This document shows positions 17,544 to 59,551 of a stretch of 64,000 nt of DNA, piece by piece (within the stretch, counting starts at the first letter, position 1; each line of letters begins with the position of its first letter). The stretch is from the NCBI GenBank assembly GCA_040880425.1, contig JBBDIL010000003.1, positions 9,225 through 73,224 of the forward strand, given 5' to 3'. The notes beneath the pieces were generated by a model. That model saw only the letters and a program-made list of their open reading frames with translations, ran no database searches and was not told the DNA's origin. The DNA comes from Burkholderiales bacterium (GTDB lineage Bacteria > Pseudomonadota > Gammaproteobacteria > Burkholderiales > Eutrophovitaceae). Made by a program: the position numbers and the translations under genes.

Positions 17544-17557
17544 TTGATTCGGGTCAA
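17544..17557. promoter_or_regulatory. FNR/Dnr-type box TTGATTCGGGTCAA upstream of the hemerythrin operon
   Basis: TTGAT-N4-GTCAA, centred about 58 bp upstream of the hemerythrin ATG. Confidence 0.5.
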
Positions 17558-18531
17558 TTTCGTGGAAAGGCATCGCGGCCCGATGTGGCGTATGCCAGCG
17601 CCGCCAGCAGCATGAGCACGGCGATACCGAGCAGATCGTGTGCAAGCACCATGGCAAACGGGAAATCCGGGCGGATGCCGAACGTGGCAACGGCTGCCTG
17701 CGCAAGTGCGACAGCCGATGTAAAGAGCGCCAGTATGCGCAGTGATCGGGCGGTATGCGAAAGCTGCAGTACCACGCCGCCTGCCGCCACCAGCAGCAAG
17801 ACCGGGGAGAGGCGCTGCGCAAGGCCGAGCGCCTGCCGTGCCGCGTCCGCCGCGGCAGGCTCCAACTGTGCCTCCAGCGCGATAAGCGGATTGAACGCCA
17901 CCAAGTCGGGTCCGCGCCACACCGCACCACATTCTGCAAGCGTCGGGCAGGCGAGCACGACATGATGCGCGTACGCCACGACATTCAGCGCGAAGTACGC
18001 TAAGCCGAGCGACAGCGCGACTGCGGCCGAACCTGCGGTTCTGCGATCCGGGTGCTCAGGCTGCCGAGAGCGGGCACGCAGGTACAGCCACCAGAGAAGC
18101 AGCAGCAGGACCGTCCCCGCCGCGACGTTGCCGAGGATCACCGACGGCGACCCGAATGATTTCGCCATCCGGCCGAGGACGGCAAGGAAAATGGTGAGCA
18201 CGATCACTGCAGTTGCAATGGTCAGGTCGCCCCGTCGCCGCGGTTTCTGCACCCAGGCCAGTCCGACCGCGAGAATCGCCACTGCTCCCATTCCCGAAGC
18301 GGCCAGCCGGTGCAGCGGCCGTGCAATACGATGCAACGGCCGCAGTTCCTCCTGTGCCTGCACCCCGTAACATTCGGGCCAGTCTTCGCAACCGAACCCG
18401 CTCGCGACCAGCCGCATGTAGCCGCTGGTGGTCAGCACCAGAAACATGAGCGCAACGCCGCCGAGCGCCGTCCACCGGAGGAGCGCGCGTTCGTTCCCGT
18501 TGTGCGCAACCAGGCGTGCTGCCCCGCTCAC
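17554..18531 (-). CDS. COX15/CtaA-family protein (Cys-pair type haem A synthase-like)
   Basis: 'GFGCEDWPECYG' and second pair 'ACPTLAECG'; His in TMs (PLHRLAASG, LAHDLLG); about 8 TM. Confidence 0.65.
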   Translation of the reverse strand: MSGAARLVAHNGNERALLRWTALGGVALMFLVLTTSGYMRLVASGFGCEDWPECYGVQAQEELRPLHRIARPLHRLAASGMGAVAILAVGLAWVQKPRRRGDLTIATAVIVLTIFLAVLGRMAKSFGSPSVILGNVAAGTVLLLLLWWLYLRARSRQPEHPDRRTAGSAAVALSLGLAYFALNVVAYAHHVVLACPTLAECGAVWRGPDLVAFNPLIALEAQLEPAAADAARQALGLAQRLSPVLLLVAAGGVVLQLSHTARSLRILALFTSAVALAQAAVATFGIRPDFPFAMVLAHDLLGIAVLMLLAALAYATSGRDAFPRN

Positions 18532-18591
18532 CCGCGCCTCATCGCGTCGAGAGACGGGAAAGCCGCGTGCTCCGATTTGCCGGCCACACGA

Positions 18592-19698
18592 TCAGACGAT
18601 CTGCACAGCATGCTCGCCGATCTGACCACGCAGGGCGGGCTCTGTCGCCCGGACCGAAGCGGCTGCCGCGCGCAACTCGTGCATTGCCCAGATGACTGCG
18701 CTCAGCAGCAGCACTGCACCGCCTTGGTGTGCTACAGCCAGCGGAACCGGAACCACCAGCAGCAGCGTCGCGACGCCGAGTGCGATCTGTATTGCAAGCG
18801 CAGCCGCCAATGCATGCACCGCAATGCGTGCGCCGCGCGGCATGCCGACGCGCTGTGCGGTCAGCCAGAATCCCGCCACTAACGCCATCAGCAGCCAGGC
18901 AATCATGCGATGGGTGAATTGCACCGTCGTCATGTTGTTGAAGAAGTTCAGCCACGACGGATCGAGCATTAGCATCCCGGGTGGCAGGAAATGCCCGTTC
19001 ATCAGCGGAAACGTGTTGTAGGCATAGCCGGCGCGGATGCCCGCGACCAGCGCCCCGCTCAGCGCCATGACGAAGATCAGCACGGCGAGGCTACCCGCAT
19101 AACCCGAGAGTCTGAGCAGTGCGCCGCTGCCGGCGGCGCGTGCGGGCCGCAGCAAATCAAGCGCGACCCACAACATCCAGCCATAGATCACAAGTGCGAG
19201 CCCGAAATGCGCAGTCAGACGCAGATGACTGACGCGCGGATTGTCCACCAGACCGCTCTTGACCATGTACCAACCCATCGCACCCTGCAAGGCGCCCAGC
19301 ACGAAGATGCCGCCGAGCTGCCAGCGCAGCGCGCCGCGAATCTCGCCGCGTACGAGAAACCATACGAAGGGAACAAGGAAAGCCAGGCCGATCGCACGCC
19401 CGAGCAGCCGGTGGAAGTATTCCCACCAGAAAATGCCCTTGAACTCCGCCAGCGACATGCCCTTGTTCACCTGAAGATACTCGGGCGTCTGCCGGTACTT
19501 CTCGAAGAGAACATCCCAGTCGTTCTGGCTGAGCGGCGGAATGGTTCCAACGATCGGTTGCCATTCCACGATCGAAAGGCCGGATTGCGTAAGGCGAGTC
19601 GCACCGCCTACCACCACCATCGCGAATACCAGCAGGCAGCAGGCGAACAGCCAAATCATGACATTGCGCTGTGCGGCATCGGCAACATTCTCGCGCAT
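18592..19698 (-). CDS. ctaA: haem A synthase (COX15/CtaA, proteobacterial type)
   Basis: '[44 protein letters not shown]...[17 protein letters not shown]' canonical COX15 N-terminus. Confidence 0.85.
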
Positions 19699-19780
19699 GG
19701 ATCGGTTCTCTCCGAAGTCTGAAGTTCGGATGGAATTCTAGACGTCAGAAATACGCCTTGCGCAGCCAGGCCGGTTTTTC

Positions 19781-19794
19781 TTGATGCGAATCAA
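19781..19794. promoter_or_regulatory. FNR/Dnr-type box TTGATGCGAATCAA in the divergent ctaA / oxidase intergenic region
   Basis: Perfect TTGAT-N4-ATCAA palindrome; about 89 bp from the ctaA start and about 100 bp from the 61-aa ORF start. Confidence 0.65.
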
Positions 19795-19886: not shown

Positions 19887-20072
19887 ATGGCAAACGCTGA
19901 CGATACTTCCAATGCCGGTGAGGGAACGGAAAACACAGGTGAAAAGCTGCCTGTGATGCAGCAGTTGCTCGACAACCCGTTTCTCCTGTTGTTCATCGGT
20001 GTGACCATGCCGACGGTCTTTTACATCATCTGGGGTGTGATGGAGATCGTCACCATTCCGATCGCCCAATAG
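19887..20072 (+). CDS. small single-TM protein preceding oxidase subunit II (candidate subunit IIa-like component)
   Basis: 61 aa, acidic N-terminus then one TM (FLLLFIGVTMPTVFYIIWGVMEIV); GGAG upstream; 42 nt before subunit II. Confidence 0.5.
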   Translation: MANADDTSNAGEGTENTGEKLPVMQQLLDNPFLLLFIGVTMPTVFYIIWGVMEIVTIPIAQ

Positions 20073-20114
20073 CGACGGACGCGCAAGCGGAGCGAAATAA
20101 AAGAGAGGCGAACA

Positions 20115-20660
20115 ATGAGTGCAATACTGCCGCCGAGTACCAAGGCCTGGTGGAAGCAGCCGCTGGATCGCGTGGAAGGCACCTGGATAGCGATTGCCTT
20201 CATTTGGTGCCTGATCATGTTTTTCATGATGCCGTACTGGCATGTTTTCGGAAAACAGAATCTTTCCAACGAGGCCTACCGGGTCACGCCGGAGTACTTC
20301 AGCCAGAAGACGCAGGAAATGGTCGATCAGTACACAGTCCGCACCGAGACTGATCTCCAGACACCGGTGGTACGGCCGCCCGCGGGATCCGACGTTTATC
20401 TCATTGCCCGCCTCTGGTCCTGGTGGCCGATCCTTGAACTGGAGAAGGGGCAGAGCTATCGCCTGCATCTTTCTTCCATGGACTATGTCCACTCGTTCTC
20501 CCTGCAGCCGGAGAACATGAACATCCAGGTGTTTCCCGGCTACATGGGCGTCTACACGATCACGCCAACGCGGGCAGGTACCTATTCGATCGTGTGCAAC
20601 GAGTTCTGCGGCATCGGGCACCACACGATGGTGTCGAATCTTTACGTGGTCGAGAGATAA
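20115..20660 (+). CDS. haem-copper oxidase subunit II, single-TM CuA type (B-family-like)
   Basis: One N-terminal TM; CuA motif 'CNEFCGIGHHTM' with upstream His (YVHSFSL). Confidence 0.85.
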   Translation: MSAILPPSTKAWWKQPLDRVEGTWIAIAFIWCLIMFFMMPYWHVFGKQNLSNEAYRVTPEYFSQKTQEMVDQYTVRTETDLQTPVVRPPAGSDVYLIARLWSWWPILELEKGQSYRLHLSSMDYVHSFSLQPENMNIQVFPGYMGVYTITPTRAGTYSIVCNEFCGIGHHTMVSNLYVVER

Positions 20661-20673
20661 GGGAGACCGGGCA

Positions 20674-22386
20674 ATGAACAACGCTGCAAGTTACCGCATC
20701 TGTCCGGATACCGGATTGCAGTTTCACAAGTCCGCGGAACTGCTGATGAAGGCGAACGCCGTCGCAGGGGTGCTTGCGCTGCTTGTCGGTGGCATTCTTG
20801 CGCTGCTGGTAACGCTGACGCGCTGGCCCGCGGTGCGGCTGCTGCCCGCAGACCAGTTCTACCTGGTTCTGACTGCGCACGGCATCGACATGCTGATCTT
20901 CTGGATCATCTTCTTCGAGATGGCGGTCCTGTACTTCTGCTCGTCGACCCTGCTGCGCAGCCGGCTTGCCACCCCGCGCATCGCCTGGGCGGGATTCTCG
21001 CTGATGGTGATCGGCGCGATCGTCACCAACGTCGCGATCTTCCAGGGGGGATCGAGCGTGATGATGACCTCGTATGTACCGATGCCGGCAGCGCCGCATT
21101 TCTATCTCGGGCTGATCCTGTTTGCGGTCGGTGCGCTGATTGGATGCTTCGTGTTCCTCGGCACGCTGGTGGTCGCCCGCGCGGAACGCACGTACGAGGG
21201 CTCGGTACCGCTGGTGACCTTTGGCGCGCTCACCGCCGCGATCATCGCGATATTCACGATTGCGTCCGGCGCGATCATTTTGATCCCGACTTTTCTGTGG
21301 TCGGTTGGTTACATCAACCAGATTGATCCCCTGATGTACAAGACCGTGTGGTGGGCGTTCGGCCACTCTTCGCAGCAGATCAACGTTTCTGCGCACGTGG
21401 CGGTGTGGTACGCGATCGCGGCGATCGTATTCGGCGCCAAGCCCATGTCCGAGAAGGTGAGCCGCGGGGCGTTCCTGCTGTACATCCTTTTCCTGCAGCT
21501 GGCGAGCGCGCACCATCTGCTGGCCGATCCGGGCATCAGTTCCGAATGGAAGATATTCAATACCAGCTACGCCATGTATCTCGCGGTATTGGCGAGCATG
21601 GTGCACGGGCTGACCGTGCCGGGATCGATCGAAGTCGCCCAGCGGGAGAAAGGCCTGAACCGCGGTCTGTTCGAGTGGATCCGTAAAGCACCATGGGGAA
21701 ATCCGGTGTTCTCGGGGATGTTCATTTCACTCATCGGTTTCGGTTTTCTCGGCGGCATCTCCGGCGTGATGATGGGCACAGAGCAGCTCAACATCATCAT
21801 CCACAACACCATCTACGTGCCGGGGCATTTCCACGCGACCGTGGTGGTGGGCACCACGCTCGCCTTCATGGCGTTGACCTACTTTCTTATTCCGACGCTG
21901 TTCCGGCGGGAGATGATCATGCCCGGGCTGGCGAAGTGGCAGCCCTACCTGTTCGGAATCGGGATGTCGCTGTTCTCGCTGTTCATGATGGGCGCGGGCA
22001 CGCTCGGCGTCTCGCGCCGGCACTGGGACATGGCGTTCAGCGGCGCGCAAATGCCGTACGAGTATCCCGGCACCGCCTACCTGATGATGGGGTTGATGGC
22101 GCTGGCGGGTATCGCCGCCACCGTCGGTGGCGTGATCTACCTGCTGGTGACTGTCGGCTCGCTGCTCTGGGGCCGGAGGCTGGACGCGAAGGACACCTAT
22201 ACCGCGAAACTCGTGCCGCATCGACTGCCGCCGGTCGCAGCCGCGATCGAGGGCCATGGCGGCCTCGGCATCAAGGGGTTCGCCGCACCGGGTACGTTCG
22301 TATTCGCGATGGTGTTCCTTGCGGCGTTCGTCCTGTACTACTTCGTGAACTGGAAGTACCTGTCGGAAATCTGGTACATCGGGTGA
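20674..22386 (+). CDS. haem-copper oxidase subunit I, B-family-like but lacking the HPxVY cross-link tyrosine (possible NO reductase of the B-derived NOR clades)
   Basis: Collinear with ba3 subunit I as recalled (DPLMYKTVWWAFGH..., LASAHHLLADPGISSEWK, LFEWIRKAPWGNP, HNTIYVPGHFHATV); the ba3 'GHPIVY' position reads 'GHSSQQ'. Confidence 0.8.
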   Translation: MNNAASYRICPDTGLQFHKSAELLMKANAVAGVLALLVGGILALLVTLTRWPAVRLLPADQFYLVLTAHGIDMLIFWIIFFEMAVLYFCSSTLLRSRLATPRIAWAGFSLMVIGAIVTNVAIFQGGSSVMMTSYVPMPAAPHFYLGLILFAVGALIGCFVFLGTLVVARAERTYEGSVPLVTFGALTAAIIAIFTIASGAIILIPTFLWSVGYINQIDPLMYKTVWWAFGHSSQQINVSAHVAVWYAIAAIVFGAKPMSEKVSRGAFLLYILFLQLASAHHLLADPGISSEWKIFNTSYAMYLAVLASMVHGLTVPGSIEVAQREKGLNRGLFEWIRKAPWGNPVFSGMFISLIGFGFLGGISGVMMGTEQLNIIIHNTIYVPGHFHATVVVGTTLAFMALTYFLIPTLFRREMIMPGLAKWQPYLFGIGMSLFSLFMMGAGTLGVSRRHWDMAFSGAQMPYEYPGTAYLMMGLMALAGIAATVGGVIYLLVTVGSLLWGRRLDAKDTYTAKLVPHRLPPVAAAIEGHGGLGIKGFAAPGTFVFAMVFLAAFVLYYFVNWKYLSEIWYIG

Positions 22387-22390
22387 ACAC

Positions 22391-23320
22391 ATGCGCAGCC
22401 CAAACTGCGTGACTGAGATGCAGCGCCAGGAGGTGCGCGGCCCGCGGACAAAGCTCGCCGAGGATGTGCGCGCCGTCACGGGTCTGTTCAAGATGCGCAT
22501 CGGCGTCGTCATCACCTGGACTGCGCTGGCCGCGGCCGCGACGACGCCGGGACAAGGACTCCCGGCATGGAAGTTCGCCGTACTCGCGTTCTCGGTGTTC
22601 ATCGCCTCGGCTGCCGCGGGCGCACTCAACCAGTATCTCGAGCGCGACATAGACGCGCGGATGTCACGCACCCGCAACCGTCCGTTCGTCACCGGCGCCG
22701 CGGCCCACGACGGGCGCTGGGTCTGGCTGATCATGGCGCTGACGGCCGGCGCGGTGCTGGCGGCCGCGTACTCCATCAACATGCTGACTGCGCTGTACGT
22801 GTTTCTGGGAGCGTTCTTCTACGCCGTGGTGTACACGGCGTGGCTGAAACGGCGCACCTGGATGAACATCGTGATCGGCGGACTGGCCGGCAGCTTCGCC
22901 GTGCTCGCCGGCGCAGCTGCAGTAGCGCCAGGGCTGCCGATGCAGGCGCTGATCCTGGCGATCGTGCTGTTCCTGTGGACGCCGTCGCACTTCTGGAGTC
23001 TGGCAATCGCCTACCGGGAAGATTATCTGGCGGCAAAGGTGCCGATGCTGCCGGTGGTGATCGGCAACGCCCGCACCGCGCGCGTCATCCTCGCGAACAC
23101 GGTGGTCCTTGTGGCGGTGTCCCTGCTGCCGGTGTTCTACGGCAGTGGCTGGATCTACCTTGCCGGCGCCGCGGCCGGCGGCGCCTGGTTCATCCTGCGC
23201 AATATCGACCTGGTACGCCGGCCGGACGACAGGCGCACGGCAATGAGAAGTTTCTTCGCGTCGCTGGTGCAGCTCTCGCTGCTGCTCGCCGCGGCGATGA
23301 TCGACGCGGCCCTGCTTTGA
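22391..23320 (+). CDS. ctaB: protohaem IX farnesyltransferase (haem O synthase)
   Basis: UbiA-family; 'NQYLERDIDARMSRTRNRP' motif, about 8-9 TM; start may be the internal Met at 22418. Confidence 0.85.
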   Translation: MRSPNCVTEMQRQEVRGPRTKLAEDVRAVTGLFKMRIGVVITWTALAAAATTPGQGLPAWKFAVLAFSVFIASAAAGALNQYLERDIDARMSRTRNRPFVTGAAAHDGRWVWLIMALTAGAVLAAAYSINMLTALYVFLGAFFYAVVYTAWLKRRTWMNIVIGGLAGSFAVLAGAAAVAPGLPMQALILAIVLFLWTPSHFWSLAIAYREDYLAAKVPMLPVVIGNARTARVILANTVVLVAVSLLPVFYGSGWIYLAGAAAGGAWFILRNIDLVRRPDDRRTAMRSFFASLVQLSLLLAAAMIDAALL

Positions 23321-23403
23321 AGGTGCACGTTTCGGCCGCGGAAAATGCAGATTGAGGCGGGAGCAGGGTTTTCCCGCTCTCTGCGGTGCGAGTGTGGAAC
23401 GAA

Positions 23404-24219
23404 ATGACTCGAATACGTTTCCGGTGCCTGCGATGGTTCGCTGCGACCGTGGCAGCCGTCTCGTCGCTCGGCCTCATGGCAGCGACCAGCGTGCAGCCGG
23501 ATGAAACGGCCGCGCTCGAGTTCAGCCAGGGCGTCCTCGGCAAGAGGGTGCCCGACTACGCGTTTGCGACGCATGCCGGAGAATCGCGTCGTCTGCGCGA
23601 CTACCGCGGCAAACCGCTGCTGGTGACATTCGTCTATACAGCGTGTTTCCAGGCCTGCCCGGTCGGAGTGAAATTCCTCGACCAGGCCGTGGCCCAGGCG
23701 CACAAGGTGATCGGCGCAGACCGGTTTTCCGTCGCGGTCATCGGCTTCAATCAGCCTTTCGATACGCCTGAGGCAATGCGCGCGTTCGCCGTGCGTCACG
23801 GCCTGGTTGATTCCGGGTGGGATTTCGTGAGCCCCGATGCCGGATCGGTGCAGGCGTTGACGGATGATTTCGGTTTCAGCTGGTACGCGACGCCGAAAGG
23901 GTTCGATCACATCGCGCAGGTTACGCTGCTCGATGCAGAAGGGCGCGTGTATCGGCAGATCTACGGCGAGACCTTCGAGGCGCGTGAGCTGATCGAACCC
24001 ATGAGGCAGCTCATCGCCGGGACGCCCGCCCCTGCGGGAGACTGGCGTGCATTCGTCGACAAGGTGCGCCTGTTGTGCACCGTGTACGATCGCTCCAGCG
24101 GTCGCTACCGGCTCGATTATTCTCTGTTCCTGGGTATCGCGATCGGCCTGGGCATTCTCGGTGCCGTGGTCGCCAGCCTGGTGCACGAGTGGCGGCGCAA
24201 CCGGCGTCCGGCGGTCTGA
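23404..24219 (+). CDS. SCO/SenC-family copper chaperone with C-terminal TM extension
   Basis: Thioredoxin fold with 'YTACFQACP' CxxxC and downstream His (FDHIAQV); extra C-terminal TM (LFLGIAIGLGILGAVVASLV); track ORF starts at GTG 23386. Confidence 0.75.
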   Translation: MTRIRFRCLRWFAATVAAVSSLGLMAATSVQPDETAALEFSQGVLGKRVPDYAFATHAGESRRLRDYRGKPLLVTFVYTACFQACPVGVKFLDQAVAQAHKVIGADRFSVAVIGFNQPFDTPEAMRAFAVRHGLVDSGWDFVSPDAGSVQALTDDFGFSWYATPKGFDHIAQVTLLDAEGRVYRQIYGETFEARELIEPMRQLIAGTPAPAGDWRAFVDKVRLLCTVYDRSSGRYRLDYSLFLGIAIGLGILGAVVASLVHEWRRNRRPAV

Positions 24220-24309: not shown

Positions 24310-24323
24310 TTGATGCGCATCAA
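24310..24323. promoter_or_regulatory. FNR/Dnr-type box TTGATGCGCATCAA upstream of the cytochrome b fusion / HCO-like module
   Basis: Perfect palindrome; about 134 bp upstream of the proposed GTG 24451. Confidence 0.6.
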
Positions 24324-24450: not shown

Positions 24451-26325
24451 GTGATCGCGCCTCTGCAGCGCGGCGGGCAATGGCTGTTCATGCGCGTCGA
24501 GGGCGGATTCAATCTGTTCTTCGGGCAGGCGCTCAACCCGCTCTACCACCTGGGCGCAATCACCTTCCTGCTTTTCTGGATTGCGCTTGCGAGCGGTATC
24601 TATCTATACGTGTTCTTCGACACCAGCGTAACGGGGGCGTATGACTCGGTGGCGCGCCTGACGCACGGTCAGTGGTATCTGGGCGGCGTCATGCGCAGCC
24701 TGCATCGCTATGCATCCGACGGCATGGTCATCACCATGCTGTTGCACATGGTGCGGTATTTCGTTTTCGATCGTTACCGGAACTTCCGCTGGTTCTCCTG
24801 GGTGACCGGGGTGATTCTGCTTTGGCTGGTATACGCTTCCGGCATCAACGGCTACATGCTGCCGTGGGACCGTCTCGCCCAGTTCGTGGCGACCGCAACT
24901 GCGGAGTGGATCGACTGGTTCCCCATGTTCGCGGGCGCGCTTGCTCGCAACTTCAGCTTCGAGGGATCGGTGAACGACCGGCTCTTCTCTCTGCTGGCAT
25001 TCCTGCACATCGGTATCCCGCTCGGCCTGTTGATCGCAATGTGGGTGCACACCCAGCGCGTGCCCGGCGCCAGGAGCAGTCCGCCGCCGGCGATCGCGGC
25101 GATGACCGGCGTCGCGCTGCTGGTGCTCGCGGCGGTGAAGCCGGCGGTCAGCCAGGGGCGCGCGGATCTCTCCACCGCAGTCGCGGCGGTCGGGCTCGAC
25201 TGGTTCTACCTCCCACTCTATCCGTTGATCTACGCATGGTCGCCGCGCGATGTCTGGGCGCTGGCGCTGGGCGCAACCTTGCTGCTGTTCGCGATCCCCT
25301 GGCTTGGACGCCGGCGGCGCGAGCGGCTGGCGGAGTTCAAGGCGACTTTCCGTCCGGGCAATCTTTCTGCCCCGGTGCGTGCCGGAGAGACGCTGCTGGA
25401 AGCCGGACTGCGCCAGGGCATACCGCTGCCTTACGACTGCCGCAACGGCGGCTGCGGCGTGTGCAAGGCGGATCTGCTGCAGGGCGCCGTGGACTACGGC
25501 GTGTACCAGAAGACGGCGCTATCCGACGAGGAGAAGGAAGATGGCAGTCTGCTGCTGTGTTGCGCTACCCCGCTATCGGATGTGGACATCGAACTGGAGA
25601 CATCGCGCGAGCACACCGCCACGGTGGTGGACATGCAGCAGCTTGCGCCGGATGTCATGCTGCTCAGGCTAAGGCCCAACAGGCCGGTTTCGTACGTGGC
25701 AGGTCAGTACATCAACATCGTGCTGGAGAACGGCGATACCCGCAGCTTTTCCTTTGCGACCGCGCCTGGCGCGGGTGAACTGATCGAACTGCATGTGCGC
25801 CTGATTCCGGGCGGCAGGTTTACCACGCATGTCTTCACGCGCATGTGCGAAGGCGACCGGCTGCGTTTCCGCGGGCCGTTTGGCGCTTTCACGTTGCAGG
25901 AGGACAGTCCGAGACCGATTATCTTTGTGGCGGGCGCTACCGGATTTGCGCCGGTGAAGAGCATGCTCGAGTACGCGTTCGAGCATGGCATCCGCCGCCC
26001 CATGGTGCTGTACTGGGGTGTGCGCTCGCGTAAAGACCTGTACATGGCGGAAATGCCGGAGTGCTGGGCGCGCGAGCACCAGAATTTCAGCTTTGTGCCG
26101 GTGCTGTCCGAACCGCAGCCGGAAGATGAGTGGACCGGAAGGACCGGCATGGTGCACGAAGCAATACTCGAGGACTTCCCTACGTTGCAGGGCTACGAGC
26201 TGTACGCCTGCGGGTCGATGCAGATGGTGGAGTCCGCGCATCCGGAGTTCATCGCGCAGGGGCTGTCCGAGGATGCCTGTTTCTCCGATGCCTTCACCCA
26301 CGCAGCGCAGGGATCACCGGCATGA
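24451..26325 (+). CDS. fusion protein: di-haem cytochrome b (bc1/b6 N-terminal type) + plant-type [2Fe-2S] ferredoxin + FNR-like FAD/NAD(P)H reductase
   Basis: His pairs 14 residues apart in two helices (SLHRYASDGMVITMLLH; FLHIGIPLGLLIAMWVH), 'NGYMLPWD'; 'CRNGGCGVCK...LLCC'; 'RSFSFA', 'GPFG', 'GATGFAPVKSM'. Start moved to GTG 24451 (GGAG upstream; N-terminus aligns with the paralog; an FNR box sits at the track start 24310). Confidence 0.8.
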   Translation: MIAPLQRGGQWLFMRVEGGFNLFFGQALNPLYHLGAITFLLFWIALASGIYLYVFFDTSVTGAYDSVARLTHGQWYLGGVMRSLHRYASDGMVITMLLHMVRYFVFDRYRNFRWFSWVTGVILLWLVYASGINGYMLPWDRLAQFVATATAEWIDWFPMFAGALARNFSFEGSVNDRLFSLLAFLHIGIPLGLLIAMWVHTQRVPGARSSPPPAIAAMTGVALLVLAAVKPAVSQGRADLSTAVAAVGLDWFYLPLYPLIYAWSPRDVWALALGATLLLFAIPWLGRRRRERLAEFKATFRPGNLSAPVRAGETLLEAGLRQGIPLPYDCRNGGCGVCKADLLQGAVDYGVYQKTALSDEEKEDGSLLLCCATPLSDVDIELETSREHTATVVDMQQLAPDVMLLRLRPNRPVSYVAGQYINIVLENGDTRSFSFATAPGAGELIELHVRLIPGGRFTTHVFTRMCEGDRLRFRGPFGAFTLQEDSPRPIIFVAGATGFAPVKSMLEYAFEHGIRRPMVLYWGVRSRKDLYMAEMPECWAREHQNFSFVPVLSEPQPEDEWTGRTGMVHEAILEDFPTLQGYELYACGSMQMVESAHPEFIAQGLSEDACFSDAFTHAAQGSPA

Positions 26326-26873: not shown

Positions 26874-26930
26874 GTTTCCAGCTGTGTACCCCCTGTAGGA
26901 TGGTTTCAATGTCGGGTGGTGAACTCAATC

Positions 26931-28451: not shown

Positions 28452-28467
28452 GAGGGGGAGTCAATCC

Positions 28468-29904: not shown

Positions 29905-29928
29905 CGGGCGCGGGTGCGGTGGCGTGAC

Positions 29929-48126: not shown

Positions 48127-48140
48127 TTGACCCACATCAA
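48127..48140. promoter_or_regulatory. FNR/Dnr-like box TTGACCCACATCAA upstream of the c2-like cytochrome gene
   Basis: One mismatch; centred about 88 bp upstream of ATG 48045. Confidence 0.45.
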
Positions 48141-49990: not shown

Positions 49991-50049
49991 CTCTTTCATG
50001 CGGTTCTCGCATTTCACGTTTTCTCGGGTCTTCGTGTACCGCATCTGCG

Positions 50050-51261: not shown

Positions 51262-51431
51262 CGATCGCTCCTAAGTTTGTGTTCGCGTGAACTGACCGGG
51301 AAAAGAACGGCTGCCCACCAAGCGCACCGAAGCCAGCAGGAAATCATCCGGACCGGCATTGTCGTCTTTACGAGCATTGCGCTCCGTGGCTGCCTTCGCG
51401 TCGAGCCTTTCCTTCCGGTGCTCAGCCACGG

Positions 51432-51926
51432 CTATGTCAGCCTCAGTCCGGTCTTTTTCAGAATCCGGCTGCTGTAGAGCACTTCGTGACTGCGAAGTGC
51501 AGATCCGAGAAGCTGCGCGATTTGGTGCACCTTGCTCTCGACCTCGCCGCGATCGTGTCCGTGCACCATCGCGAACAGGTTATAGGGCCACAGCGGCGGA
51601 TGCCGGCTGCGCAGGTAGCAGTGGCTTGCAAGACCGCCATTGGCTACCCGCATGGCAAGACTGTCCACCGCCGCATCGTCAACGTCCCATACCGACATCC
51701 CGTTTGCGACGTATCCGATCGCGTAGTGATTCGGCACCGCCGCGATGCGCCGGATCACACCGATGTCCAGCATGCGCTGCATGCGCCGCATTACGTTTTC
51801 CGGCGTCGTGTCCACCCATGCCGCGATGTCATGGTACGGGCGAGGTGTAAGCGGAAGTCCCGCCTGCGTGGCTCTGACAATGGCCGTATCCAGCGCGTCG
51901 AGTACCGGTTCGGTCGCCATGTTCAT
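51432..51926 (-). CDS. nirH: sirohaem decarboxylase subunit NirH (Lrp/AsnC-like)
   Basis: AsnC-type fold, 'LPLTPRPYHDIA'; start ambiguous (51953/51926/51920). Confidence 0.75.
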   Translation of the reverse strand: MNMATEPVLDALDTAIVRATQAGLPLTPRPYHDIAAWVDTTPENVMRRMQRMLDIGVIRRIAAVPNHYAIGYVANGMSVWDVDDAAVDSLAMRVANGGLASHCYLRSRHPPLWPYNLFAMVHGHDRGEVESKVHQIAQLLGSALRSHEVLYSSRILKKTGLRLT

Positions 51927-51930
51927 GTGG

Positions 51931-52383
51931 TCAGACCGGGAGATCGAGCGCAACGAAATACTCGCGCAGTTTGTGGAACTCGAACACGGGATACCCGCAA
52001 CTCCGCTCTATGTCGAACAACGTGCGCGCGATATCCGGCCGCCCTGCAGCGGCGATCACAAACCACATGTTCAGCGCATGTTCGCGTCGGTAATTGTGCG
52101 CGACCTCCGGGAAAGCATTGACGATTCCGGTGACCCGTTCGTAATCATGCTCGGGTACCTGGATCGCGGCCAGCGTGTAGGCGCCTCCCAGGCGTTCCGC
52201 CTGATACAGCGGGCCAAACCGCGTGAGCGTGCCCTCGGCAAGCAGACGCCTCAAACGTTCAATCAGCGATTCCTCTGAAAGCCCGAGTTCTGCGGCCAGC
52301 TGCAGATACGGCCGGTCGCAGACCGGAAAGCCTTGCTGCAGACGGTTCAGGATCCGGCGATAGTCTTCATCTAGCTTCTGCAT
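51931..52383 (-). CDS. nirG: sirohaem decarboxylase subunit NirG
   Basis: 'LDEDYRRILNRLQQGFPVCDRPY'; start at the internal Met of track ORF. Confidence 0.75.
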   Translation of the reverse strand: MQKLDEDYRRILNRLQQGFPVCDRPYLQLAAELGLSEESLIERLRRLLAEGTLTRFGPLYQAERLGGAYTLAAIQVPEHDYERVTGIVNAFPEVAHNYRREHALNMWFVIAAAGRPDIARTLFDIERSCGYPVFEFHKLREYFVALDLPV

Positions 52384-53344
52384 ATCGCGCACCCTGTTGT
52401 TTGAAGCGCCGCAGGCCGAACAGAATCTGTTGGGAGTAATGCGCCAGCCCGCAGCTCTGGCCAAGCGAGTCGATCGTGGCCTTGACCAGGTTACGGTTAC
52501 CGCCGTGGATCATGCAGTACAGATTGAAGGGCCACGCCTCGGGATCGCGTGCGCGCCGGTAGCACAGATTGACCAACCCGGTGCCGGCTGCCGCCATGCC
52601 ATGCATGTCAACTGTTTCGTCCGGCACGTCCCACACGACCATCGCATTTTCGGTGAAGCCCAGTTCCCTGTGGCGCACGATCACGCCGATGCGCCGCAGT
52701 GCGCCGAGTGAAAGCCAGTTTTCCAGCGTGTCGATCACCTCGCTCTCGTTCATGCCGCACAGCTCACCGAGCAACGCATACGGCCGGGCCGCCAGCGGCA
52801 GCCCCTCGCCCAGCGCTGCGAGCAGCGCCCGCTCGGGTGCCGTCAGGCAGAGCGGACGGGCAGGCGGCCGCGCACACGTTACCGCGCGCGGCGAACGCCG
52901 GCGTGCGAGATCGAAGCCGAGATCGATGTGATACTCGGCGAGCAGCGGCAGCCGCATGACCGGCAGTGCGCAACTGGTTTCGATGCGCGCGATCGTCTGG
53001 ATGAGCGCATTCCCGTCCGACGCAGCGATCACGAACCAAAGGTTGACCACGTGATCGCGCTGGTAGTTATGGTTGACTTCCGGAATGGCGCTGACCTGCC
53101 GTGCGACCGAGTCCAGTCGCGATGCCGGCACCTGCATTGCTGCGAGCGTGCTTGCACCAAAGGCGCCGGGGCGATAGGTTGCGCCGACGCGACTGACCTT
53201 GCCGTCGAAGCGCAATCGCGCAAGCGCGGCCAGAACGCCGCCCACATCGTGGCCTAGTTGCATCGCGATCTGGTCATAAGGCTCGGACACCAGCGGAAAG
53301 CCGCGCTGGAAATCGTTCAGCAGCCGGTCTTCCAGCGCGTTCAT
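52367..53344 (-). CDS. nirDL: sirohaem decarboxylase NirD-NirL fusion
   Basis: Two tandem AsnC-like modules (LLNDFQRGFPLVSEPY...; LLAALGEGLPLAARPY...) in one 325-aa ORF. Confidence 0.8.
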   Translation of the reverse strand: MNALEDRLLNDFQRGFPLVSEPYDQIAMQLGHDVGGVLAALARLRFDGKVSRVGATYRPGAFGASTLAAMQVPASRLDSVARQVSAIPEVNHNYQRDHVVNLWFVIAASDGNALIQTIARIETSCALPVMRLPLLAEYHIDLGFDLARRRSPRAVTCARPPARPLCLTAPERALLAALGEGLPLAARPYALLGELCGMNESEVIDTLENWLSLGALRRIGVIVRHRELGFTENAMVVWDVPDETVDMHGMAAAGTGLVNLCYRRARDPEAWPFNLYCMIHGGNRNLVKATIDSLGQSCGLAHYSQQILFGLRRFKQQGARYAEAR

Positions 53345-54523
53345 TCAGAATCCAATCCGGAAAGCGCGCGCAGTGAAGAAAATGCCGCTCGGCTTGTCTG
53401 CCGGAACCACGGCGATACGCTGAAGGCTCGCCGTGTCGTACACCACGACCCGGTCGTCGTCGCGTGCCGAGATCCAGACAGACTCGCCGCGTGGCGTGAA
53501 CTCCATGTGCAGTACCGCACGTCCGGGCTCCAGCGTGTCGGTCACCTCGAGCCGCTCGGTATCGATTACCTGCACGCGCCCGTTGTCGGGGAAGGCAAAG
53601 CTCGTCCATACTTGCCTGCCGTCGGGCCGCGCCATTACGAACACCGGTTGCCCCGCAACCGGGATGCGCCCCACTTCCTGCCAGGTCCCGGTGTCGATGA
53701 CCAGCACTTCGTGACGGCCGACGGCGGGCAGGAATGCACGGCTGCCCGCGACGGCCCAGCCGCGAAGATGCGGCATTTTGTAGACGGGCAGACGCTCTTC
53801 ACCTCGACCGTAGCCGTCGAGCACGCGGCTGACGCCTTGTTCCGGATACCAAAGATCGAGCAGTGCAACGCCGTCCTCGCCGAACAGACCCGCGAGGTAG
53901 TACCGCCCGCCCGGAGTGATCAGGGCGTCGTAAGGCTGGCGGCCGATGTTGCGAAACTTCGTGAGCTTCGGCACGCGCGGTTCGGACAAGTCGGCGATCC
54001 AGATCTCGCCGGCATCGAACAGGCTGAATACGAAACGATTGCCCGGCGCGTCTGCCAGTCCGACAACCTTCGAGCGAGCGCCGTCGCCACCGTACTCCGC
54101 CGGAATATCCGCAAGCAGCTCGAGCGAGTCCGCTGAGAAAACTCTCACGCCGCCGGGTTCGTAATTCTGCGCGACGACGAAGCGGCCATCCTGGGATATT
54201 GCACCGCCGATGCTGTTGCCCGCCTGTATGACGCGTGCTTCGATCCTTGCCAGCAGCAGGTCGACCTTGGTGAGGCCGCCATCACGCCCGAACACGAACG
54301 CGTAACGACCGTCGCGCGAGTACACCGCCGATGCATGTGACAGATCGCCCAGTCCCTCGACTCGCGCGAGGCTCGCGCGTGCGCTCGTGTCGATGATCTG
54401 CAGGGACCCCGCGGCGCGCTCGACAACGATTCCGAGATCGCCGGTTCCGCGCAATGGCGTCTGTGCACCGACTGCCCCGGCGAGCAGCAGGGCCGCAGCG
54501 GCGATTGCCCCGCTAGTCCTCAT
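53345..54523 (-). CDS. nirF: haem d1 biosynthesis protein NirF (cd1-like propeller, no haem c motif)
   Basis: Signal peptide; propeller homologous to the NirS C-domain; no CxxCH. Confidence 0.85.
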   Translation of the reverse strand: MRTSGAIAAAALLLAGAVGAQTPLRGTGDLGIVVERAAGSLQIIDTSARASLARVEGLGDLSHASAVYSRDGRYAFVFGRDGGLTKVDLLLARIEARVIQAGNSIGGAISQDGRFVVAQNYEPGGVRVFSADSLELLADIPAEYGGDGARSKVVGLADAPGNRFVFSLFDAGEIWIADLSEPRVPKLTKFRNIGRQPYDALITPGGRYYLAGLFGEDGVALLDLWYPEQGVSRVLDGYGRGEERLPVYKMPHLRGWAVAGSRAFLPAVGRHEVLVIDTGTWQEVGRIPVAGQPVFVMARPDGRQVWTSFAFPDNGRVQVIDTERLEVTDTLEPGRAVLHMEFTPRGESVWISARDDDRVVVYDTASLQRIAVVPADKPSGIFFTARAFRIGF

Positions 54524-54890
54524 CTGCCAGGCCTTTCAACAGAACTTCCACCAGCCAGGCCGCTTCGCTTTCGTTCAAAAACGCGCTCCATCCGGGCATC
54601 GCGCTGCCGGGCCGGCCATGGAGGATCACGTGCCGAAGATTCTCTGCAGACCTGCTGCGCAGATCGGCGGCAAGCAACGGCGGCCCCAGACCGCCTGCGA
54701 GGCTCAGACCGTGACAGGAGCCGCAGTCATGACGCAACAGATGGAGCAGCTCCATGCCTCGCGCAGGTTCTGGTGCTGCAATTTCCGTGGCGCGAGCGTC
54801 CGCCAATACAAGAATTGCGATTGCTGCCAGGGCGGCTGTCAGTTTCTCCGTACGCAGTCGCATGTGTTTCGCTGGTTTGATGGTCGTCAC
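54513..54890 (-). CDS. nirC: cytochrome c55X NirC
   Basis: 'CGSCHG', 'GRPGSAMPGW'; start uncertain (GTG 54890 or ATG 54863). Confidence 0.75.
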   Translation of the reverse strand: MTTIKPAKHMRLRTEKLTAALAAIAILVLADARATEIAAPEPARGMELLHLLRHDCGSCHGLSLAGGLGPPLLAADLRSRSAENLRHVILHGRPGSAMPGWSAFLNESEAAWLVEVLLKGLADED

Positions 54891-54934
54891 ATCGAGTGTG
54901 CAGAATGATTCTGCTTTGTTTGTGAGCCAACCTG

Positions 54935-54948
54935 TTGACGAAGGTCAA
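54935..54948. promoter_or_regulatory. FNR/Dnr-like box TTGACGAAGGTCAA upstream of nirC
   Basis: Palindromic TTGAC-N4-GTCAA just downstream of the nirM terminator. Confidence 0.5.
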
Positions 54949-54965
54949 GCCGCGCTTTCGTGCAG

Positions 54966-54995
54966 ACAAAAAAGCGGGGGACGCGAAGTCCCCCA
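54966..54995 (-). terminator. rho-independent terminator after nirM
   Basis: Minus strand reads GGGGGAC-TTCGC-GTCCCCC followed by GCTTTTTTG. Confidence 0.7.
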
Positions 54996-55083
54996 ATAAT
55001 GGTGGAGTGAACGATATGGAGAACGTCCTCTTCTATATACCTCTCCTTTCTCTCCCGTACAGGGAGCATTGCGAATGCAGTAC

Positions 55084-55413
55084 CTACCGGGCCAGGACCC
55101 AGCTCACCAGGATGGTGAGTTCTGCATCGCTTATTCGTCCCTTGTGCGGCGGCATCGGGATCGCACCCCAGACGCCGCTCCCGCCATCTCGCACTTTCTT
55201 TTCCAGGTTCGCCTGTGCACCGGCGTCGCCGTTGTACTTGGCGGCGATTTCCTGGTACGCCGGTCCGACCAATTTCTTGTCGAGCGCATGACAGGCCGAG
55301 CAGCCTTTGTCCTTGTTAAGTTTCTCCGCGTCGGCCGCATGCGCAATGACAGCATTGAAGAACACGGCGGCGGCTAACGCTGCGATCAGGATGGCCAAAA
55401 TGTCGGATTTCAT
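55084..55413 (-). CDS. nirM: cytochrome c551/c552 (NirM)
   Basis: 'CSACHALDKKLVGPAYQEIAAKY...GVWGAIPMPP' class ID cytochrome c. Confidence 0.85.
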   Translation of the reverse strand: MKSDILAILIAALAAAVFFNAVIAHAADAEKLNKDKGCSACHALDKKLVGPAYQEIAAKYNGDAGAQANLEKKVRDGGSGVWGAIPMPPHKGRISDAELTILVSWVLAR

Positions 55414-55425
55414 CGCGCGTGCTCC

Positions 55426-57247
<1,822 letters not shown>

Positions 57248-57297: not shown

Positions 57298-58722
57298 ATG
57301 GATTACTTCCCGGCGTTTTTCGATATCAGGAGCAGGCCTTGCCTGGTCGTAGGCGGAGGCGAGGTCGCGAGCCGCAAGGCCGCTCTGCTGCAAAAGGCGG
57401 GTGCACGCGTGACCATGGTCTCACCGGAACTAAGCCCGTCGTCCACGCGCATGGTTCAAAGCGGCGACGTGGTGCACATACCGGCACGTTTCACGGCCGA
57501 ACACCTGCGCGGTGTGGTTCTGGTGATTGCCGCTACCAACGATGCTGCGGTAAACGAAGCGGTCTTCAGGGCCGCGAGCGAGTTGCATCTGCCGGTGAAC
57601 GTAGTGGATGCGCCGCACTTGTGTTCATTCATCGTGCCGTCGATCGTCGACCGCTCGCCTGTCGTCATCGCGATAGGCAGCAGTGGCAAGGCGCCGGTGC
57701 TGGCGCGGCAGTTGCGCACGCGCCTTGAGGGTCTGATCCCGCAGTCAGTGGGACGCCTGGCGGTGCTTGCCGGTGCTTTTCGCGAGCATGCGAAGAAACG
57801 CTTCCCGCAGGTCGAGCAAAGGCGCAGATTCTGGGAAGGCATTCTCGATGGGCCGATCGCGGAAATGGTGTACTCGGGCCAGGAGGCGGCAGCGCGCCAC
57901 GCGCTACTGGACGTGCTGAACCGCGGCGGCACCGGTTCGCGGAGCCCCGGCGAGGTTTATCTAATTGGCGCCGGGCCCGGCAATCCAGACCTGCTGACTT
58001 TCCGCGCATTGCGGCTCATGCAGAAGGCGGATGTCGTGGTGTATGACCATCTGGTTGGCGAAGGTATCCTCGAACTCGTCCGGCGCGACGCGCAGCTCGT
58101 CTATGCGGGCAAAGAGAGCAACAATCACGCGCTGCCGCAGCCGGACATCAATGCTTTACTGGTGCGCATGGCGAAGGAAGGCAAATGCGTGGTGCGGCTG
58201 AAAGGCGGAGACCCGTTTATCTTTGGTCGCGGCGGCGAGGAGATGGAAGCGCTGGTGGAACACGACATACGATTTGAAGTAGTGCCCGGGGTCACGGCTG
58301 CATGCGGGGTGTCCTGTTACGCGGGCATCCCGCTTACGCACCGCGACTACGCGCAGTCCGTGGTTTTCGTTACCGGGCATCTCAGGGACGGCAGCGTGAA
58401 TCTCGATTTTGCGGCGCTCGCGCGCCCGGCGCAGACCGTGGTGATCTACATGGGGGTCGGCGGCCTGGCGCAGATCTGCGAACAATTGATCGTGCATGGC
58501 CAGCGGGCGGACATGCCCGCCGCGGTGGTCGAGCGCGGCGCAACCGACCGGCAGCGTGTCGTGACCGCCACGCTCGCGACACTACCCGCGCGCGCAGCAC
58601 AGGCCTGCGTGAAACCTCCGGCACTGGTGATCGTAGGGGAGGTTGTCGCACTGCATGACCGGCTTGCCTGGTACGGCAACGCGTCAGCCGATGCCGGACG
58701 GGAGGTGGCATCCGCAGTCTGA
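57298..58722 (+). CDS. cysG: sirohaem synthase (precorrin-2 dehydrogenase/ferrochelatase + uroporphyrinogen-III C-methyltransferase)
   Basis: N-terminal 'VVGGGEVASRKA' Rossmann; C-terminal 'VYLIGAGPGNPDLLT', 'VVRLKGGDPFIFGRGGEE'. Confidence 0.9.
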   Translation: MDYFPAFFDIRSRPCLVVGGGEVASRKAALLQKAGARVTMVSPELSPSSTRMVQSGDVVHIPARFTAEHLRGVVLVIAATNDAAVNEAVFRAASELHLPVNVVDAPHLCSFIVPSIVDRSPVVIAIGSSGKAPVLARQLRTRLEGLIPQSVGRLAVLAGAFREHAKKRFPQVEQRRRFWEGILDGPIAEMVYSGQEAAARHALLDVLNRGGTGSRSPGEVYLIGAGPGNPDLLTFRALRLMQKADVVVYDHLVGEGILELVRRDAQLVYAGKESNNHALPQPDINALLVRMAKEGKCVVRLKGGDPFIFGRGGEEMEALVEHDIRFEVVPGVTAACGVSCYAGIPLTHRDYAQSVVFVTGHLRDGSVNLDFAALARPAQTVVIYMGVGGLAQICEQLIVHGQRADMPAAVVERGATDRQRVVTATLATLPARAAQACVKPPALVIVGEVVALHDRLAWYGNASADAGREVASAV

Positions 58723-58826
58723 TCTGCTCGTGACGCTGCGGCGACCTGTTTCCCGCGCCGGAATAAAGCCCCATAATCCGCGTCTGGCGAAGCCAATGCT
58801 CCTGAAGAAGGGGCGCGAGCAGACGC

Positions 58827-59519
58827 GTGCCGACCGTTCCAATAAAAACCCAGGCCTTTCTCAGCAACCTGCCGCTGTTCCGCGAGCTCGCGCCCGAGGA
58901 GATCGAGTTGATCGCGGCCGGTACCCGCGAAGTTCGGATCAGACGCGGCGATATGCTGTTTCAGAAGGGCGACCCGTGCCGCGGCTTTCATATCGTGGTC
59001 TATGGGCAGATCAAACTGCTGTTCATAACGCCCCAGGGTGATGAGAAGGTCATCGAGATCATGGGCCCCGGCCAGAGCTTCGGCGAGGCGGTGATGTTCA
59101 TGGAAAAGCCCTATGTGGTGTCGTCGCAGGCGCTCGCGGACTCGCTTTTGCTGCACGTATCCAGGGATGTCGTGTTCGAGGGGATCGATCGTGACGCCAA
59201 GTTCGCGCGCCGGATGATCGCGGGGCTGAGCCGGCGCCTGCATCATCTGGTCAGCGACGTGGAGGCATACTCTCTGCGCTCCGCCACGCAGCGCGTGATT
59301 GGGTATCTGCTGCGCCCGGAGCACGATCACGACGACGAGGGCAAGGGCACTGTGGTTACGCTGCCGGCGACAAAGTCGGTTATCGCGTCCCGCCTCAACA
59401 TTACGCCGGAGCACTTTTCACGCATCCTCCACGAATTGGGCGAAAAGCATCTGATCGAGGTAGACGGCCGCAATGTCCGGATTCTCGATACCGATCGGTT
59501 ACGTGTTTTCGAGGGCTGA
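58827..59519 (+). CDS. Crp/Fnr-family regulator, Dnr/NnrR type (no N-terminal Cys cluster)
   Basis: cNMP-like domain; HTH 'IASRLNITPEHFSRILHEL' with the E--SR recognition motif that reads TTGAT half-sites. Confidence 0.8.
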   Translation: MPTVPIKTQAFLSNLPLFRELAPEEIELIAAGTREVRIRRGDMLFQKGDPCRGFHIVVYGQIKLLFITPQGDEKVIEIMGPGQSFGEAVMFMEKPYVVSSQALADSLLLHVSRDVVFEGIDRDAKFARRMIAGLSRRLHHLVSDVEAYSLRSATQRVIGYLLRPEHDHDDEGKGTVVTLPATKSVIASRLNITPEHFSRILHELGEKHLIEVDGRNVRILDTDRLRVFEG

Positions 59520-59537
59520 AGCCCGTATCTGCAAGGC

Positions 59538-59551
59538 TTGATCTGTATCAG
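59538..59551. promoter_or_regulatory. FNR/Dnr-like box TTGATCTGTATCAG upstream of the NMO-family gene
   Basis: One mismatch; centred about 69 bp upstream of ATG 59614. Confidence 0.4.

Follow-up and report, generated by a model that had tools for sequence, protein, structure and literature searches.

We analysed a 64-kb stretch of the genome of a Burkholderiales bacterium (hereafter the window; G000:C3:9225-73224, where G000 is the source genome, other G-numbers are further genomes and L-numbers are loci). The genome is 3.86 Mb long with a GC content of 62.7 %, it is 98.7 % complete and about 88 % of it is coding. The window carries a nir cluster with nirS, two haem-copper oxidase (HCO) loci, named here HCO1 and HCO2, and a gene for a DNR-like regulator of the Crp/Fnr family. 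It also contains predicted binding sites of the FNR type (TTGAT-N4-ATCAA, hereafter boxes). A first-pass annotation had proposed that these boxes unite nirS, both HCO operons, the hemerythrin operon, nrdD and other genes in a shared FNR/Dnr-type regulon. This proposal is supported by the enrichment of the boxes, by the class II spacing of the -10 hexamers, by conservation in relatives and by the presence of the DNR-like regulator within the same island. The genes concerned are as follows, with positions counted from the first letter of the window and lengths given in amino acids (aa):

15382-17492, minus strand: hemerythrin operon with genes for hemerythrin (17043-17492), a DUF2249-like 76-aa protein (16806-17036) and a 475-aa membrane protein (15382-16809)
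17554-19698, minus strand: ctaA region with ctaA/COX15 (18592-19698) and a gene for a second CtaA-like membrane protein (17554-18531)
19887-24219, plus strand: HCO1 operon, comprising a conserved open reading frame (ORF) of 61 aa, subunit II, subunit I, ctaB and SCO1
20115-20660, plus strand: CuA-type subunit II of HCO1, COX2 domain (Pfam)
20674-22386, plus strand: subunit I of HCO1, 570 aa, B-family-like, with Gln replacing the cross-link Tyr
22418-23320, plus strand: ctaB, within the HCO1 operon (Pfam)
23449-24219, plus strand: SCO1, within the HCO1 operon (Pfam)
24451-32777, plus strand: HCO2 module and trailing genes, with a cytochrome b + 2Fe-2S + FAD/NAD fusion, a 175-aa protein and a cytochrome b + 2x4Fe-4S + FlpD fusion
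28468-29904, plus strand: subunit I of HCO2, 478 aa, a divergent HCO
37672-42860, plus strand: nrdD group with nrdD (37672-39714), a B12-binding radical SAM protein (39898-41760) and an nrdG-like activase (42141-42860)
47533-48045, minus strand: 170-aa c-type cytochrome, behind box 48127
48272-57153, minus strand: nir cluster, nirN-J-H-G-DL-F-C, cytochrome c and nirS (nirS at 55426-57153)
57298-58722, plus strand: cysG/nirE, divergent from nirS
58827-59519, plus strand: DNR-like Crp/Fnr regulator with cNMP-binding and HTH_Crp_2 domains (Pfam) and an EHFSR helix
59614-60774, plus strand: NMO-family flavoprotein, behind box 59538

The three genes of the hemerythrin group are tightly packed and likely form one operon; a weak similarity to YtfE/RIC/DnrN was seen here, under the family cutoffs. 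An ORF called on the opposite strand (16815-17615, plus) was rejected as an antisense false call, the true genes being the three on the minus strand. Subunit I of HCO2 is followed by genes for a DGC protein, a UbiU/UbiV-like U32 pair and a UbiT-like SCP2 protein. A tetR gene and an efflux operon lie on the minus strand, divergent from nrdD, and pqqD and a radical SAM/SPASM gene come after the PqqA-like peptide gene (at about 43174). A comparison with NCBIfam yielded no name above the cutoff for the hemerythrin, the DUF2249 protein, the 475-aa protein, the CtaA-like protein, HCO2 or Dnr.

We scanned the window with the pattern TTGATNNNNATCAA, allowing at most one mismatch, and obtained nine matches where 0.89 were expected; none of 100 dinucleotide-preserving shuffles gave nine. 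The genome as a whole has 128 matches, and the nine in the window fall within 1.7 % of its length. Two boxes (19781 and 24310) are perfect and six (17544, 37554, 42882, 48127, 57234 and 59538) have one mismatch each. All nine boxes listed in the first-pass annotation were recovered at their coordinates, eight of them within the scan and the ninth, 54935, as a variant with two mismatches to the strict consensus and symmetric TTGAC..GTCAA half-sites. A tenth box, 26860, had been absent from that list. This makes ten sites with zero to two mismatches to the FNR-type palindrome, nine of which are intergenic after correction of the gene calls. The exception, 26860, lies inside the last codons of orf175, and box 17544 shares bases with the stop codon of the ctaA-like gene. 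The sites are listed below with the hexamers facing the genes, where Nx is the number of nucleotides (nt) from the last base of the box to the hexamer:

17544-17557, minus strand: TTGATTCGGGTCAA, hemerythrin operon; CAAGAT at N23 on the minus strand, ATG at about 17492
19781-19794, no strand assigned: TTGATGCGAATCAA, perfect, between the divergent ctaA and HCO1 operon; TAGCTT at N22 on the plus strand, centre at -41.5
24310-24323, plus strand: TTGATGCGCATCAA, perfect palindrome, HCO2 module; GAGCAT at N23, a degenerate -10
26860-26873, plus strand: TTGATCGAGATTAA, 64 nt 5' of the cytochrome b/4Fe-4S gene; TAGGAT at N22
37554-37567, no strand assigned: TTAATCTGCATCAA, between tetR and nrdD; TAAGAT at N22 towards tetR (minus), CATCCT at N20 towards nrdD (plus)
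42882-42895, plus strand: TTGATCCGGATTAA, about 290 nt 5' of the PqqA-like peptide gene; no hexamer
48127-48140, minus strand: TTGATGTGGGTCAA on the gene strand, 5' of the 170-aa c-type cytochrome gene; TAGGTT at N22
54935-54948, minus strand: TTGACGAAGGTCAA, 5' of the nirC-nirN genes; CAGAAT at N21 on the minus strand
57234-57247, no strand assigned: TTGATGCGAGTCAA, single bidirectional box between nirS and cysG; TAGAGT at N23 towards cysG, AATCCT at N22 towards nirS
59538-59551, plus strand: TTGATCTGTATCAG, 5' of the NMO-family flavoprotein gene; TACCGT at N22

The motif is also about 10-fold enriched between genes across the genome. Perfect boxes number 8 in intergenic and 1 in coding sequence (density ratio 58) and boxes with one mismatch 44 and 75 (density ratio 4.3); sites with two mismatches show no intergenic enrichment. 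The TTGAT palindrome has 52 intergenic matches, compared with 2-18 for 19 control palindromes with permuted half-sites. A position weight matrix built solely from sites outside the window found nine window sites scoring at least 14 bits, out of 119 such sites in the genome. The enrichment is thus real and a chance origin of the box set is excluded. A further two-mismatch box at 33664-33677, TTGATATGTGTTAA, lies 5' of a 166-aa ORF (33069-33569) without a family match, with TATTTT at N22 (minus strand); it may be another member of the regulon.

The boxes stand in a constant relation to putative -10 elements. Behind intergenic boxes of the whole genome, TAnnnT hexamers peak at N21-22 (21 of 104 directions; other offsets have about 0.4 each), and no such peak was seen behind boxes inside genes. 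A -10 hexamer 21-22 nt behind the box would put the box centre at -40.5/-41.5, which is the class II position of FNR. If the hexamers are taken to occupy -12 to -7, the predicted centres in this genome and its relatives fall at -40.5 to -42.5 (N21-23). In the window, an nAnnnT hexamer faces a gene at N20-24 behind nine of the ten boxes, and a pattern scan found no full sigma-70 promoter with a -35 element at any box.

Two of the boxes seem to mark internal promoters. Box 26860 is likely an internal promoter of the HCO2 module. Upstream of box 54935, between the box and the unit of nirS and cytochrome c, there is a strong intrinsic terminator (54975-54995, minus strand; GGGGGACTTCGCGTCCCCC followed by a T-run), which closes this unit and divides the nir cluster into two units of transcription. 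The position of this terminator before the box fits an internal promoter, and box 54935 likely serves nirC-nirF-nirDLGH-nirJ-nirN (48272-54755).

Regarding ctaA, the situation is different. The haem A genes had been placed in the regulon as a group, and this appears to hold for ctaB and sco1, which ride in the HCO1 operon. The ctaA gene has its own -10: from box 19781 the hexamer TAGAAT lies at N40 (box centre at about -59.5), and this element (TAGAAT/TACAAT) is conserved, at N40 in G000 and at N49 in G003, G007 and G008. Relative to ctaA the shared box would therefore lie near -60/-68, at best a class I position and not -41.5.

Conservation points the same way as the spacing. The island is found in synteny in the family relatives G003 and G007 and in parts in G008, G021, G036, G037 and G039, and for seven of the ten boxes a counterpart was found at the orthologous promoter. 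The HCO1/ctaA box has counterparts in G003, G007, G008, G021, G036, G037 and G041-G045, with N22 and TAGCCT, TACCGT or TAATTT kept in G003, G007, G008, G036 and G037. These same five genomes have the box of the HCO2 module, where the -10 of the relatives reads TAGAGT, TAGATT or TAGCAT at N22, and in them the N22-23 hexamer spacing is kept while the intervening spacer sequence diverges. The nirS box recurs in G003, G036, G037, G039, G042, G043 and G044. Orthologous hemerythrin boxes in G003, G007 and G008 are perfect, with CAGAAT or AACAAT at N23; the trio itself is kept in G003, G008 and G037 and adjoins HCO2 in L040 and L049. Boxes also lie upstream of nrdD in G003 (two) and G037, and the box of the cytochrome c gene is kept in G001, G003 and G007 with TAGGTT, TAAGGT or TAGTTT. 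When the pqqA spacers of G000 and G003 are compared, the sole conserved piece is the box with its flanks, CCTTRATCCGGATYAAG. Boxes resembling 26860 precede the same cytochrome b/4Fe-4S gene in L031, L073 and L097. No box matching 54935 was seen in the relatives, and at the position of box 59538 the NMO gene is absent from G001 and G003, so there is no orthologous promoter to compare.

A wider survey with the HCO2 protein found 80 loci, in Casimicrobiaceae, Comamonadaceae, Pelomicrobium, Noviherbaspirillum, Quisquiliibacterium and others. In almost all of them HCO1-ctaB-sco1 neighbours the HCO2 module, and frequently dnr and nirS are neighbours too. In 60 Burkholderiales loci sco1 and the first cytochrome b gene were both present, and 31 of these carry a box in the spacer separating the two genes, where fewer than 3 were expected (background 0.17 boxes/kb); 30 of these 31 show nAnnnT at N21-23. 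In the loci without the box (several Comamonadaceae; L056-L096) sco1 and the cytochrome b fusion gene abut, which suggests that HCO1 and HCO2 form one operon there, and dnr and nirN/nirS come directly behind HCO2. In G036 the ubiU-ubiV-ubiT genes are found apart from the HCO2 module (L112, G036:C4:147323) with a box of their own, CTGATGCGCATCAA; the O2-independent ubiquinone genes thus appear to stay in the regulon even when moved.

The genome of the closest relative, G001 from the same genus, presents another picture. At L023 (G001:C86, about 6460-8650) the gene of the 475-aa membrane protein is reduced to a fragment of 130 aa, which directly adjoins a 48-aa fragment of nrdG; the boxed cytochrome c gene comes next, and then dnr with an in-frame TAG. 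We did not find nirS, HCO1 or HCO2 in this genome, which is 92 % complete, and it seems to have lost the whole island.

Given this evidence, it is highly improbable that only a few boxes are functional (nirS, perhaps HCO1) and that the other matches, in AT-richer spacers, arose by chance or are in decay: the weak members to which such an explanation could appeal (42882 without a -10, 59538 without an orthologous promoter, 37554 with its better -10 towards tetR, and 54935 with its two mismatches) stand against the shuffles, the permuted half-sites, the conserved orthologous promoters and the sharp peak of -10 spacing, which largely refute it.

The regulator encoded in the window contains one Cys in all and lacks an N-terminal Cys cluster. 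Of the solved structures, it matches DNR of Pseudomonas aeruginosa best (3DKW, 7.7e-43, full length, with PE(T/H)FSRI conserved), while FNR-type entries (5CVR and related) score about 8e-9. The first-pass description of a Dnr-like Crp/Fnr protein with an E--SR recognition helix and without the FNR Cys cluster is thus confirmed by the domains, the EHFSR helix, the missing Cys cluster and the best structural match. In the alignment to 3DKW, His139 and His200 are kept and His187 is replaced by Arg. We take His139 and His187 to be the haem-ligand histidines of P. aeruginosa DNR. The dnr-like gene is two genes from nirS, and this adjacency is widespread in the wider loci. The spacer from cysG to dnr contained no box; dnr has none of its own, starts 105 nt behind cysG and is possibly co-transcribed with it from box 57234.

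Other regulators of the family are encoded elsewhere in the genome. The true FNR (G000 C2:26704-27330) has the CxxCx5C motif, a central Cys and an ETVSR helix, and its best solved match is 5CVR (2.5e-62). An FNR-like paralogue on C35 has CxxC only, also with an ETVSR helix, and we found NnrR-like and Crp/Vfr-like proteins as well. Boxes outside the window front ccoN, hemN, a NarX-like kinase, usp, CBS, two more hemerythrins, phosphoketolase, a GroEL paralogue and another Crp-type regulator. The genes fnr and hemN are divergent (G000:C2:26686-28933) and share a perfect box, TTGATCTCAATCAA, in their intergenic region; TAGAGT is directed towards hemN at N22, 35 nt separate the centre of the box from the start of fnr, and ccoN with its own box is 12 kb away. 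Autoregulation of fnr through this box is possible. A Crp-type helix-turn-helix regulator whose recognition helix is not of the E--SR type (G000:C11:128766-129554, minus strand) is itself preceded by an FNR-type box, with TAGTGT at N21, which hints at a regulatory cascade.

The main alternative is that the Cys-cluster FNR, perhaps together with the C35 paralogue, reads all the boxes as a single general low-oxygen regulon. Dnr would then add little beyond nirS, and the box would signal scarce oxygen and not nitric oxide (NO). This explanation draws on the true FNR described above, on the same consensus and N21-22 spacing in front of ccoN, hemN (beside fnr), usp, CBS, the hemerythrin paralogues and others, and on nrdD and ubiUVT, which are typical oxygen-regulated genes. 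Indeed, because a true FNR is present and the same box fronts ccoN, hemN, usp and CBS, the bare consensus marks about 50 sites as members of a general low-oxygen regulon and cannot alone tie the HCO operons to NO. We nevertheless consider this alternative rather unlikely. In this genome as well as in relatives, flank and centre distinguish the island boxes from those of ccoN and hemN; a DNR-like gene lies in the island and, in other lineages, directly behind HCO2 and beside nirS; and HCO1/HCO2 occur only with nirS and a Dnr orthologue, apart from three incomplete genomes (G023, G008 and G021).

The differences in flank and centre were characterised by comparing the nirS/HCO1/HCO2/hemerythrin boxes with the ccoN/hemN boxes in G000 and ten or eleven further genomes. 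Counted over these promoters, orthologous ones included, a CG centre is present in 21 of 34 boxes of the first group and in 0 of 22 of the second, and a CG or CA/TG centre in 28/34 and 3/22, while centres of A/T only show the reverse (3/34 versus 14/22). Within G000 the CG centre is found in 5/10 window boxes and 2/45 boxes elsewhere. A flanking C occurs at 15 of 20 half-sites in the window compared with 25 of 90 elsewhere (relatives: 32/54 versus 10/40). The island form can be written CTTGATGCGCATCAAT and the ccoN form TTTGATCTACGTCAAG. A DNR motif with flanking C/G, CTTGATnnnnATCAAG (CTTGAT..ATCAAG), has been described from beta-proteobacterial denitrification genes (Rodionov et al. 2005, PMC1274295), and the window boxes fit it. 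The left half TTGATGCG, which had been noted as shared by three of the boxes, is literally so, but the exact half-site was rejected as a conserved feature; relatives have TTGATT, TTGATC or TTGATA at the same promoters, and it is the CG centre with the C flank that persists. A GTCAA half-site was likewise rejected as a mark of Dnr, as ccoN and many other sites have it too.

We further trained a log-odds discriminant (nir/HCO side versus FNR side) on the relatives only, which in leave-one-out classification was correct for 24/30 and 18/20 boxes. It placed nine of the ten window boxes on the nir/HCO side and 34 of the 45 other boxes on the FNR side. Window boxes whose orthologues were outside the training set scored +8.6 (nrdD), +7.2 (pqqA), +2.6 (NMO), +1.4 (cytochrome c) and +1.0 (26860). 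The differences in flank and centre favour Dnr as the reader of the island boxes; they are suggestive and not a proof. It is a tentative idea, possible in our view and still doubtful, that a flanking C with a CG centre (CTTGATnCGnATCAAG) constitutes a code dividing promoters between a Cys-less, NO-sensing Dnr and an oxygen-sensing FNR despite their common E--SR helix and core box, with the HCO2/cytochrome b module, the hemerythrin trio, the PqqA-like operon and nrdD as NO-induced partners of a denitrification pathway based on eNOR.

The HCO genes themselves connect the island to NO. The genome has only four genes of the HCO superfamily, namely aa3, cbb3, HCO1 and HCO2, and no HCO of the cNOR or qNOR type was found in this nearly complete genome with nirS. 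A search for nosZ with PF18764 gave no match in any genome, the controls included, and so carries no information on nosZ. The best solved relative of HCO1 subunit I is ba3, with GHSSQQ aligned to GHPIVY. HCO1 fits the traits of eNOR/sNOR (a relative of the B family without the cross-link Tyr, a CuA subunit, ctaA/ctaB nearby) and is eNOR-like by these features; it may belong to either eNOR or sNOR. eNOR is a proven NO reductase with a modified haem a that needs microoxic conditions, and its gene has ctaA/ctaB neighbours (Murali et al. 2024, PMC11214002). Its regulation is not treated in that defining paper, whose text contains neither 'FNR' nor 'regulat'. Among 41 relatives, HCO1/HCO2 occur almost only with nirS and a Dnr orthologue. 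The exceptions are incomplete genomes: G023 (89 %) lacks nirS and Dnr, and a Dnr orthologue was undetected in G008 (67 %) and G021 (86 %). Five distant carriers of the HCO module all have nirS and Dnr. No HCO carrier lacking Dnr or nirS was seen among the complete genomes, a pattern that cannot separate FNR from Dnr control.

The first-pass annotation had argued from co-regulation with nirS that the two HCO loci act in NO metabolism. The shared boxes stand, but the bare consensus is not specific for NO. The link appears to be better carried by the sub-motif shared with nirS, by the co-occurrence and synteny of HCO1/HCO2, nirS and dnr, and by the absence of cNOR and qNOR.

Taken together, we think it fairly probable that the boxes are working sites of an E--SR Crp/Fnr activator that switches one 45-kb island, with the DNR-like regulator of the island as the most likely reader. 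The bound regulator, the sensed signal and the transcription starts are predictions here. A dimeric activator of the Crp/Fnr family with an E--SR helix would bind the boxes, most of them about 41.5 bp upstream of the transcription start, and at these class II promoters with a -10 but without a -35 the bound dimer would recruit RNA polymerase directly. The single boxes between nirS and cysG and between ctaA and HCO1 would each serve divergent genes. The predicted targets comprise nirS with haem d1 synthesis, the eNOR-like operon with ctaB and SCO1, and the HCO2/cytochrome b module with UbiUVT behind it. The hemerythrin operon, nrdDG, c-type cytochromes, the PqqA-like peptide operon and the NMO-type flavoprotein would be further targets. 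A response to NO is expected of the DNR-like reader, and an oxygen-sensing FNR from elsewhere in the genome would probably act above or alongside Dnr, as in the Anr-Dnr cascade of Pseudomonas.

Several observations weigh against assigning the island to Dnr in this manner. Three regulators of the genome have an E--SR helix, namely the Dnr-like protein (EHFSR), FNR (ETVSR) and the FNR-like paralogue (ETVSR), and Dnr and Anr boxes have been called indistinguishable (PMC5398030). The box of the nirC-nirN genes, 54935, falls on the FNR side of the discriminant with a score of -9.1. The sub-motif counts include non-independent orthologous promoters and by promoter family amount to 4 versus 2, and the CA/TG centre is also common among other boxes. 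At the level of promoters, the HCO2 module of the window has a poor -10 (GAGCAT) and box 42882 has no -10-like hexamer at N21-23. Finally, the regulator has Arg at the position of His187 of DNR; NO sensing by the Pseudomonas mechanism is hence not assured, and if His187 is the haem ligand, haem binding or NO sensing may differ.

Outside the proposed regulon, we noticed two adjacent paralogous proteins of about 165 aa with signal peptides, encoded at 14377-14868 and 14954-15451 (plus strand). They share the near-identical motifs LQLGP..YH.DPDPEHNN..W..GLE.ES and had no Pfam match.

In an organism with nirS and without cNOR or qNOR, a conserved box ties the eNOR-like enzyme, the genes for haem A and copper assembly, the HCO2 module and the hemerythrin trio to nitrite reduction. 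This linkage spans many uncultured and a few cultured Burkholderiales, with Quisquiliibacterium transsilvanicum DSM 29781, Noviherbaspirillum sp. ST 5-3 and Pelomicrobium sp. G1 as candidate cultured carriers of the island, and the regulon could be a cheap handle on enzymes thought to give a large share of environmental N2O production. If the sub-motif holds, annotators could separate FNR boxes under NO control from those under O2 control.

The closest known system is the DNR regulon of Pseudomonas and beta-proteobacteria (Anr-Dnr; PMC1274295). As there, a gene for a Cys-less, haem-type Crp/Fnr activator lies beside nirS, extended boxes precede the denitrification genes, a separate oxygen-sensing FNR/Anr has a wider regulon including ccoN and hemN, and nrdD, ubiUVT-type and hemerythrin/DnrN-like genes are associated members. 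Unlike there, this genome has no norCB or qNOR as NO-reductase targets but an eNOR-like operon and a second HCO/cytochrome b module, the DNR-like protein has Arg for His187, and there is no box directly before dnr. In Dinoroseobacter shibae a single bidirectional Fnr/Dnr site at -39.5/-41.5 lies between nirS and a divergent gene, nosR2, and is mainly DnrD-dependent (PMC5398030). The two systems have in common one bidirectional box near -40/-41.5 for both genes and several Crp/Fnr paralogues, FnrL and DnrD in D. shibae, for one motif. The D. shibae case was tested by mutants, reporters and RNA-seq, whereas ours is in silico, and the partner genes here are cysG-dnr and ctaA/HCO1.

The class II promoters of Escherichia coli FNR share TTGAT-N4-ATCAA at -41.5, a -10 without a -35 and the E--SR helix with our boxes; they differ in that the likely reader here is without the [4Fe-4S] Cys cluster and that the island boxes have a distinctive flank and centre. 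The eNOR operons (PMC11214002) resemble HCO1 in their B-family-derived HCO without the cross-link Tyr, the CuA subunit and the ctaA/ctaB neighbours, as well as in the adjacent nirS and in the cytochrome b/Fe-S protein and hemerythrin that travel along. The switch itself is therefore a known one, a denitrification regulon of the DNR/FNR type with textbook class II architecture. New is its membership, which includes the eNOR-like operon, the second HCO/cytochrome b module, the hemerythrin trio, the PqqA-like operon and the NMO-type gene, together with a possible Dnr-specific sub-motif.

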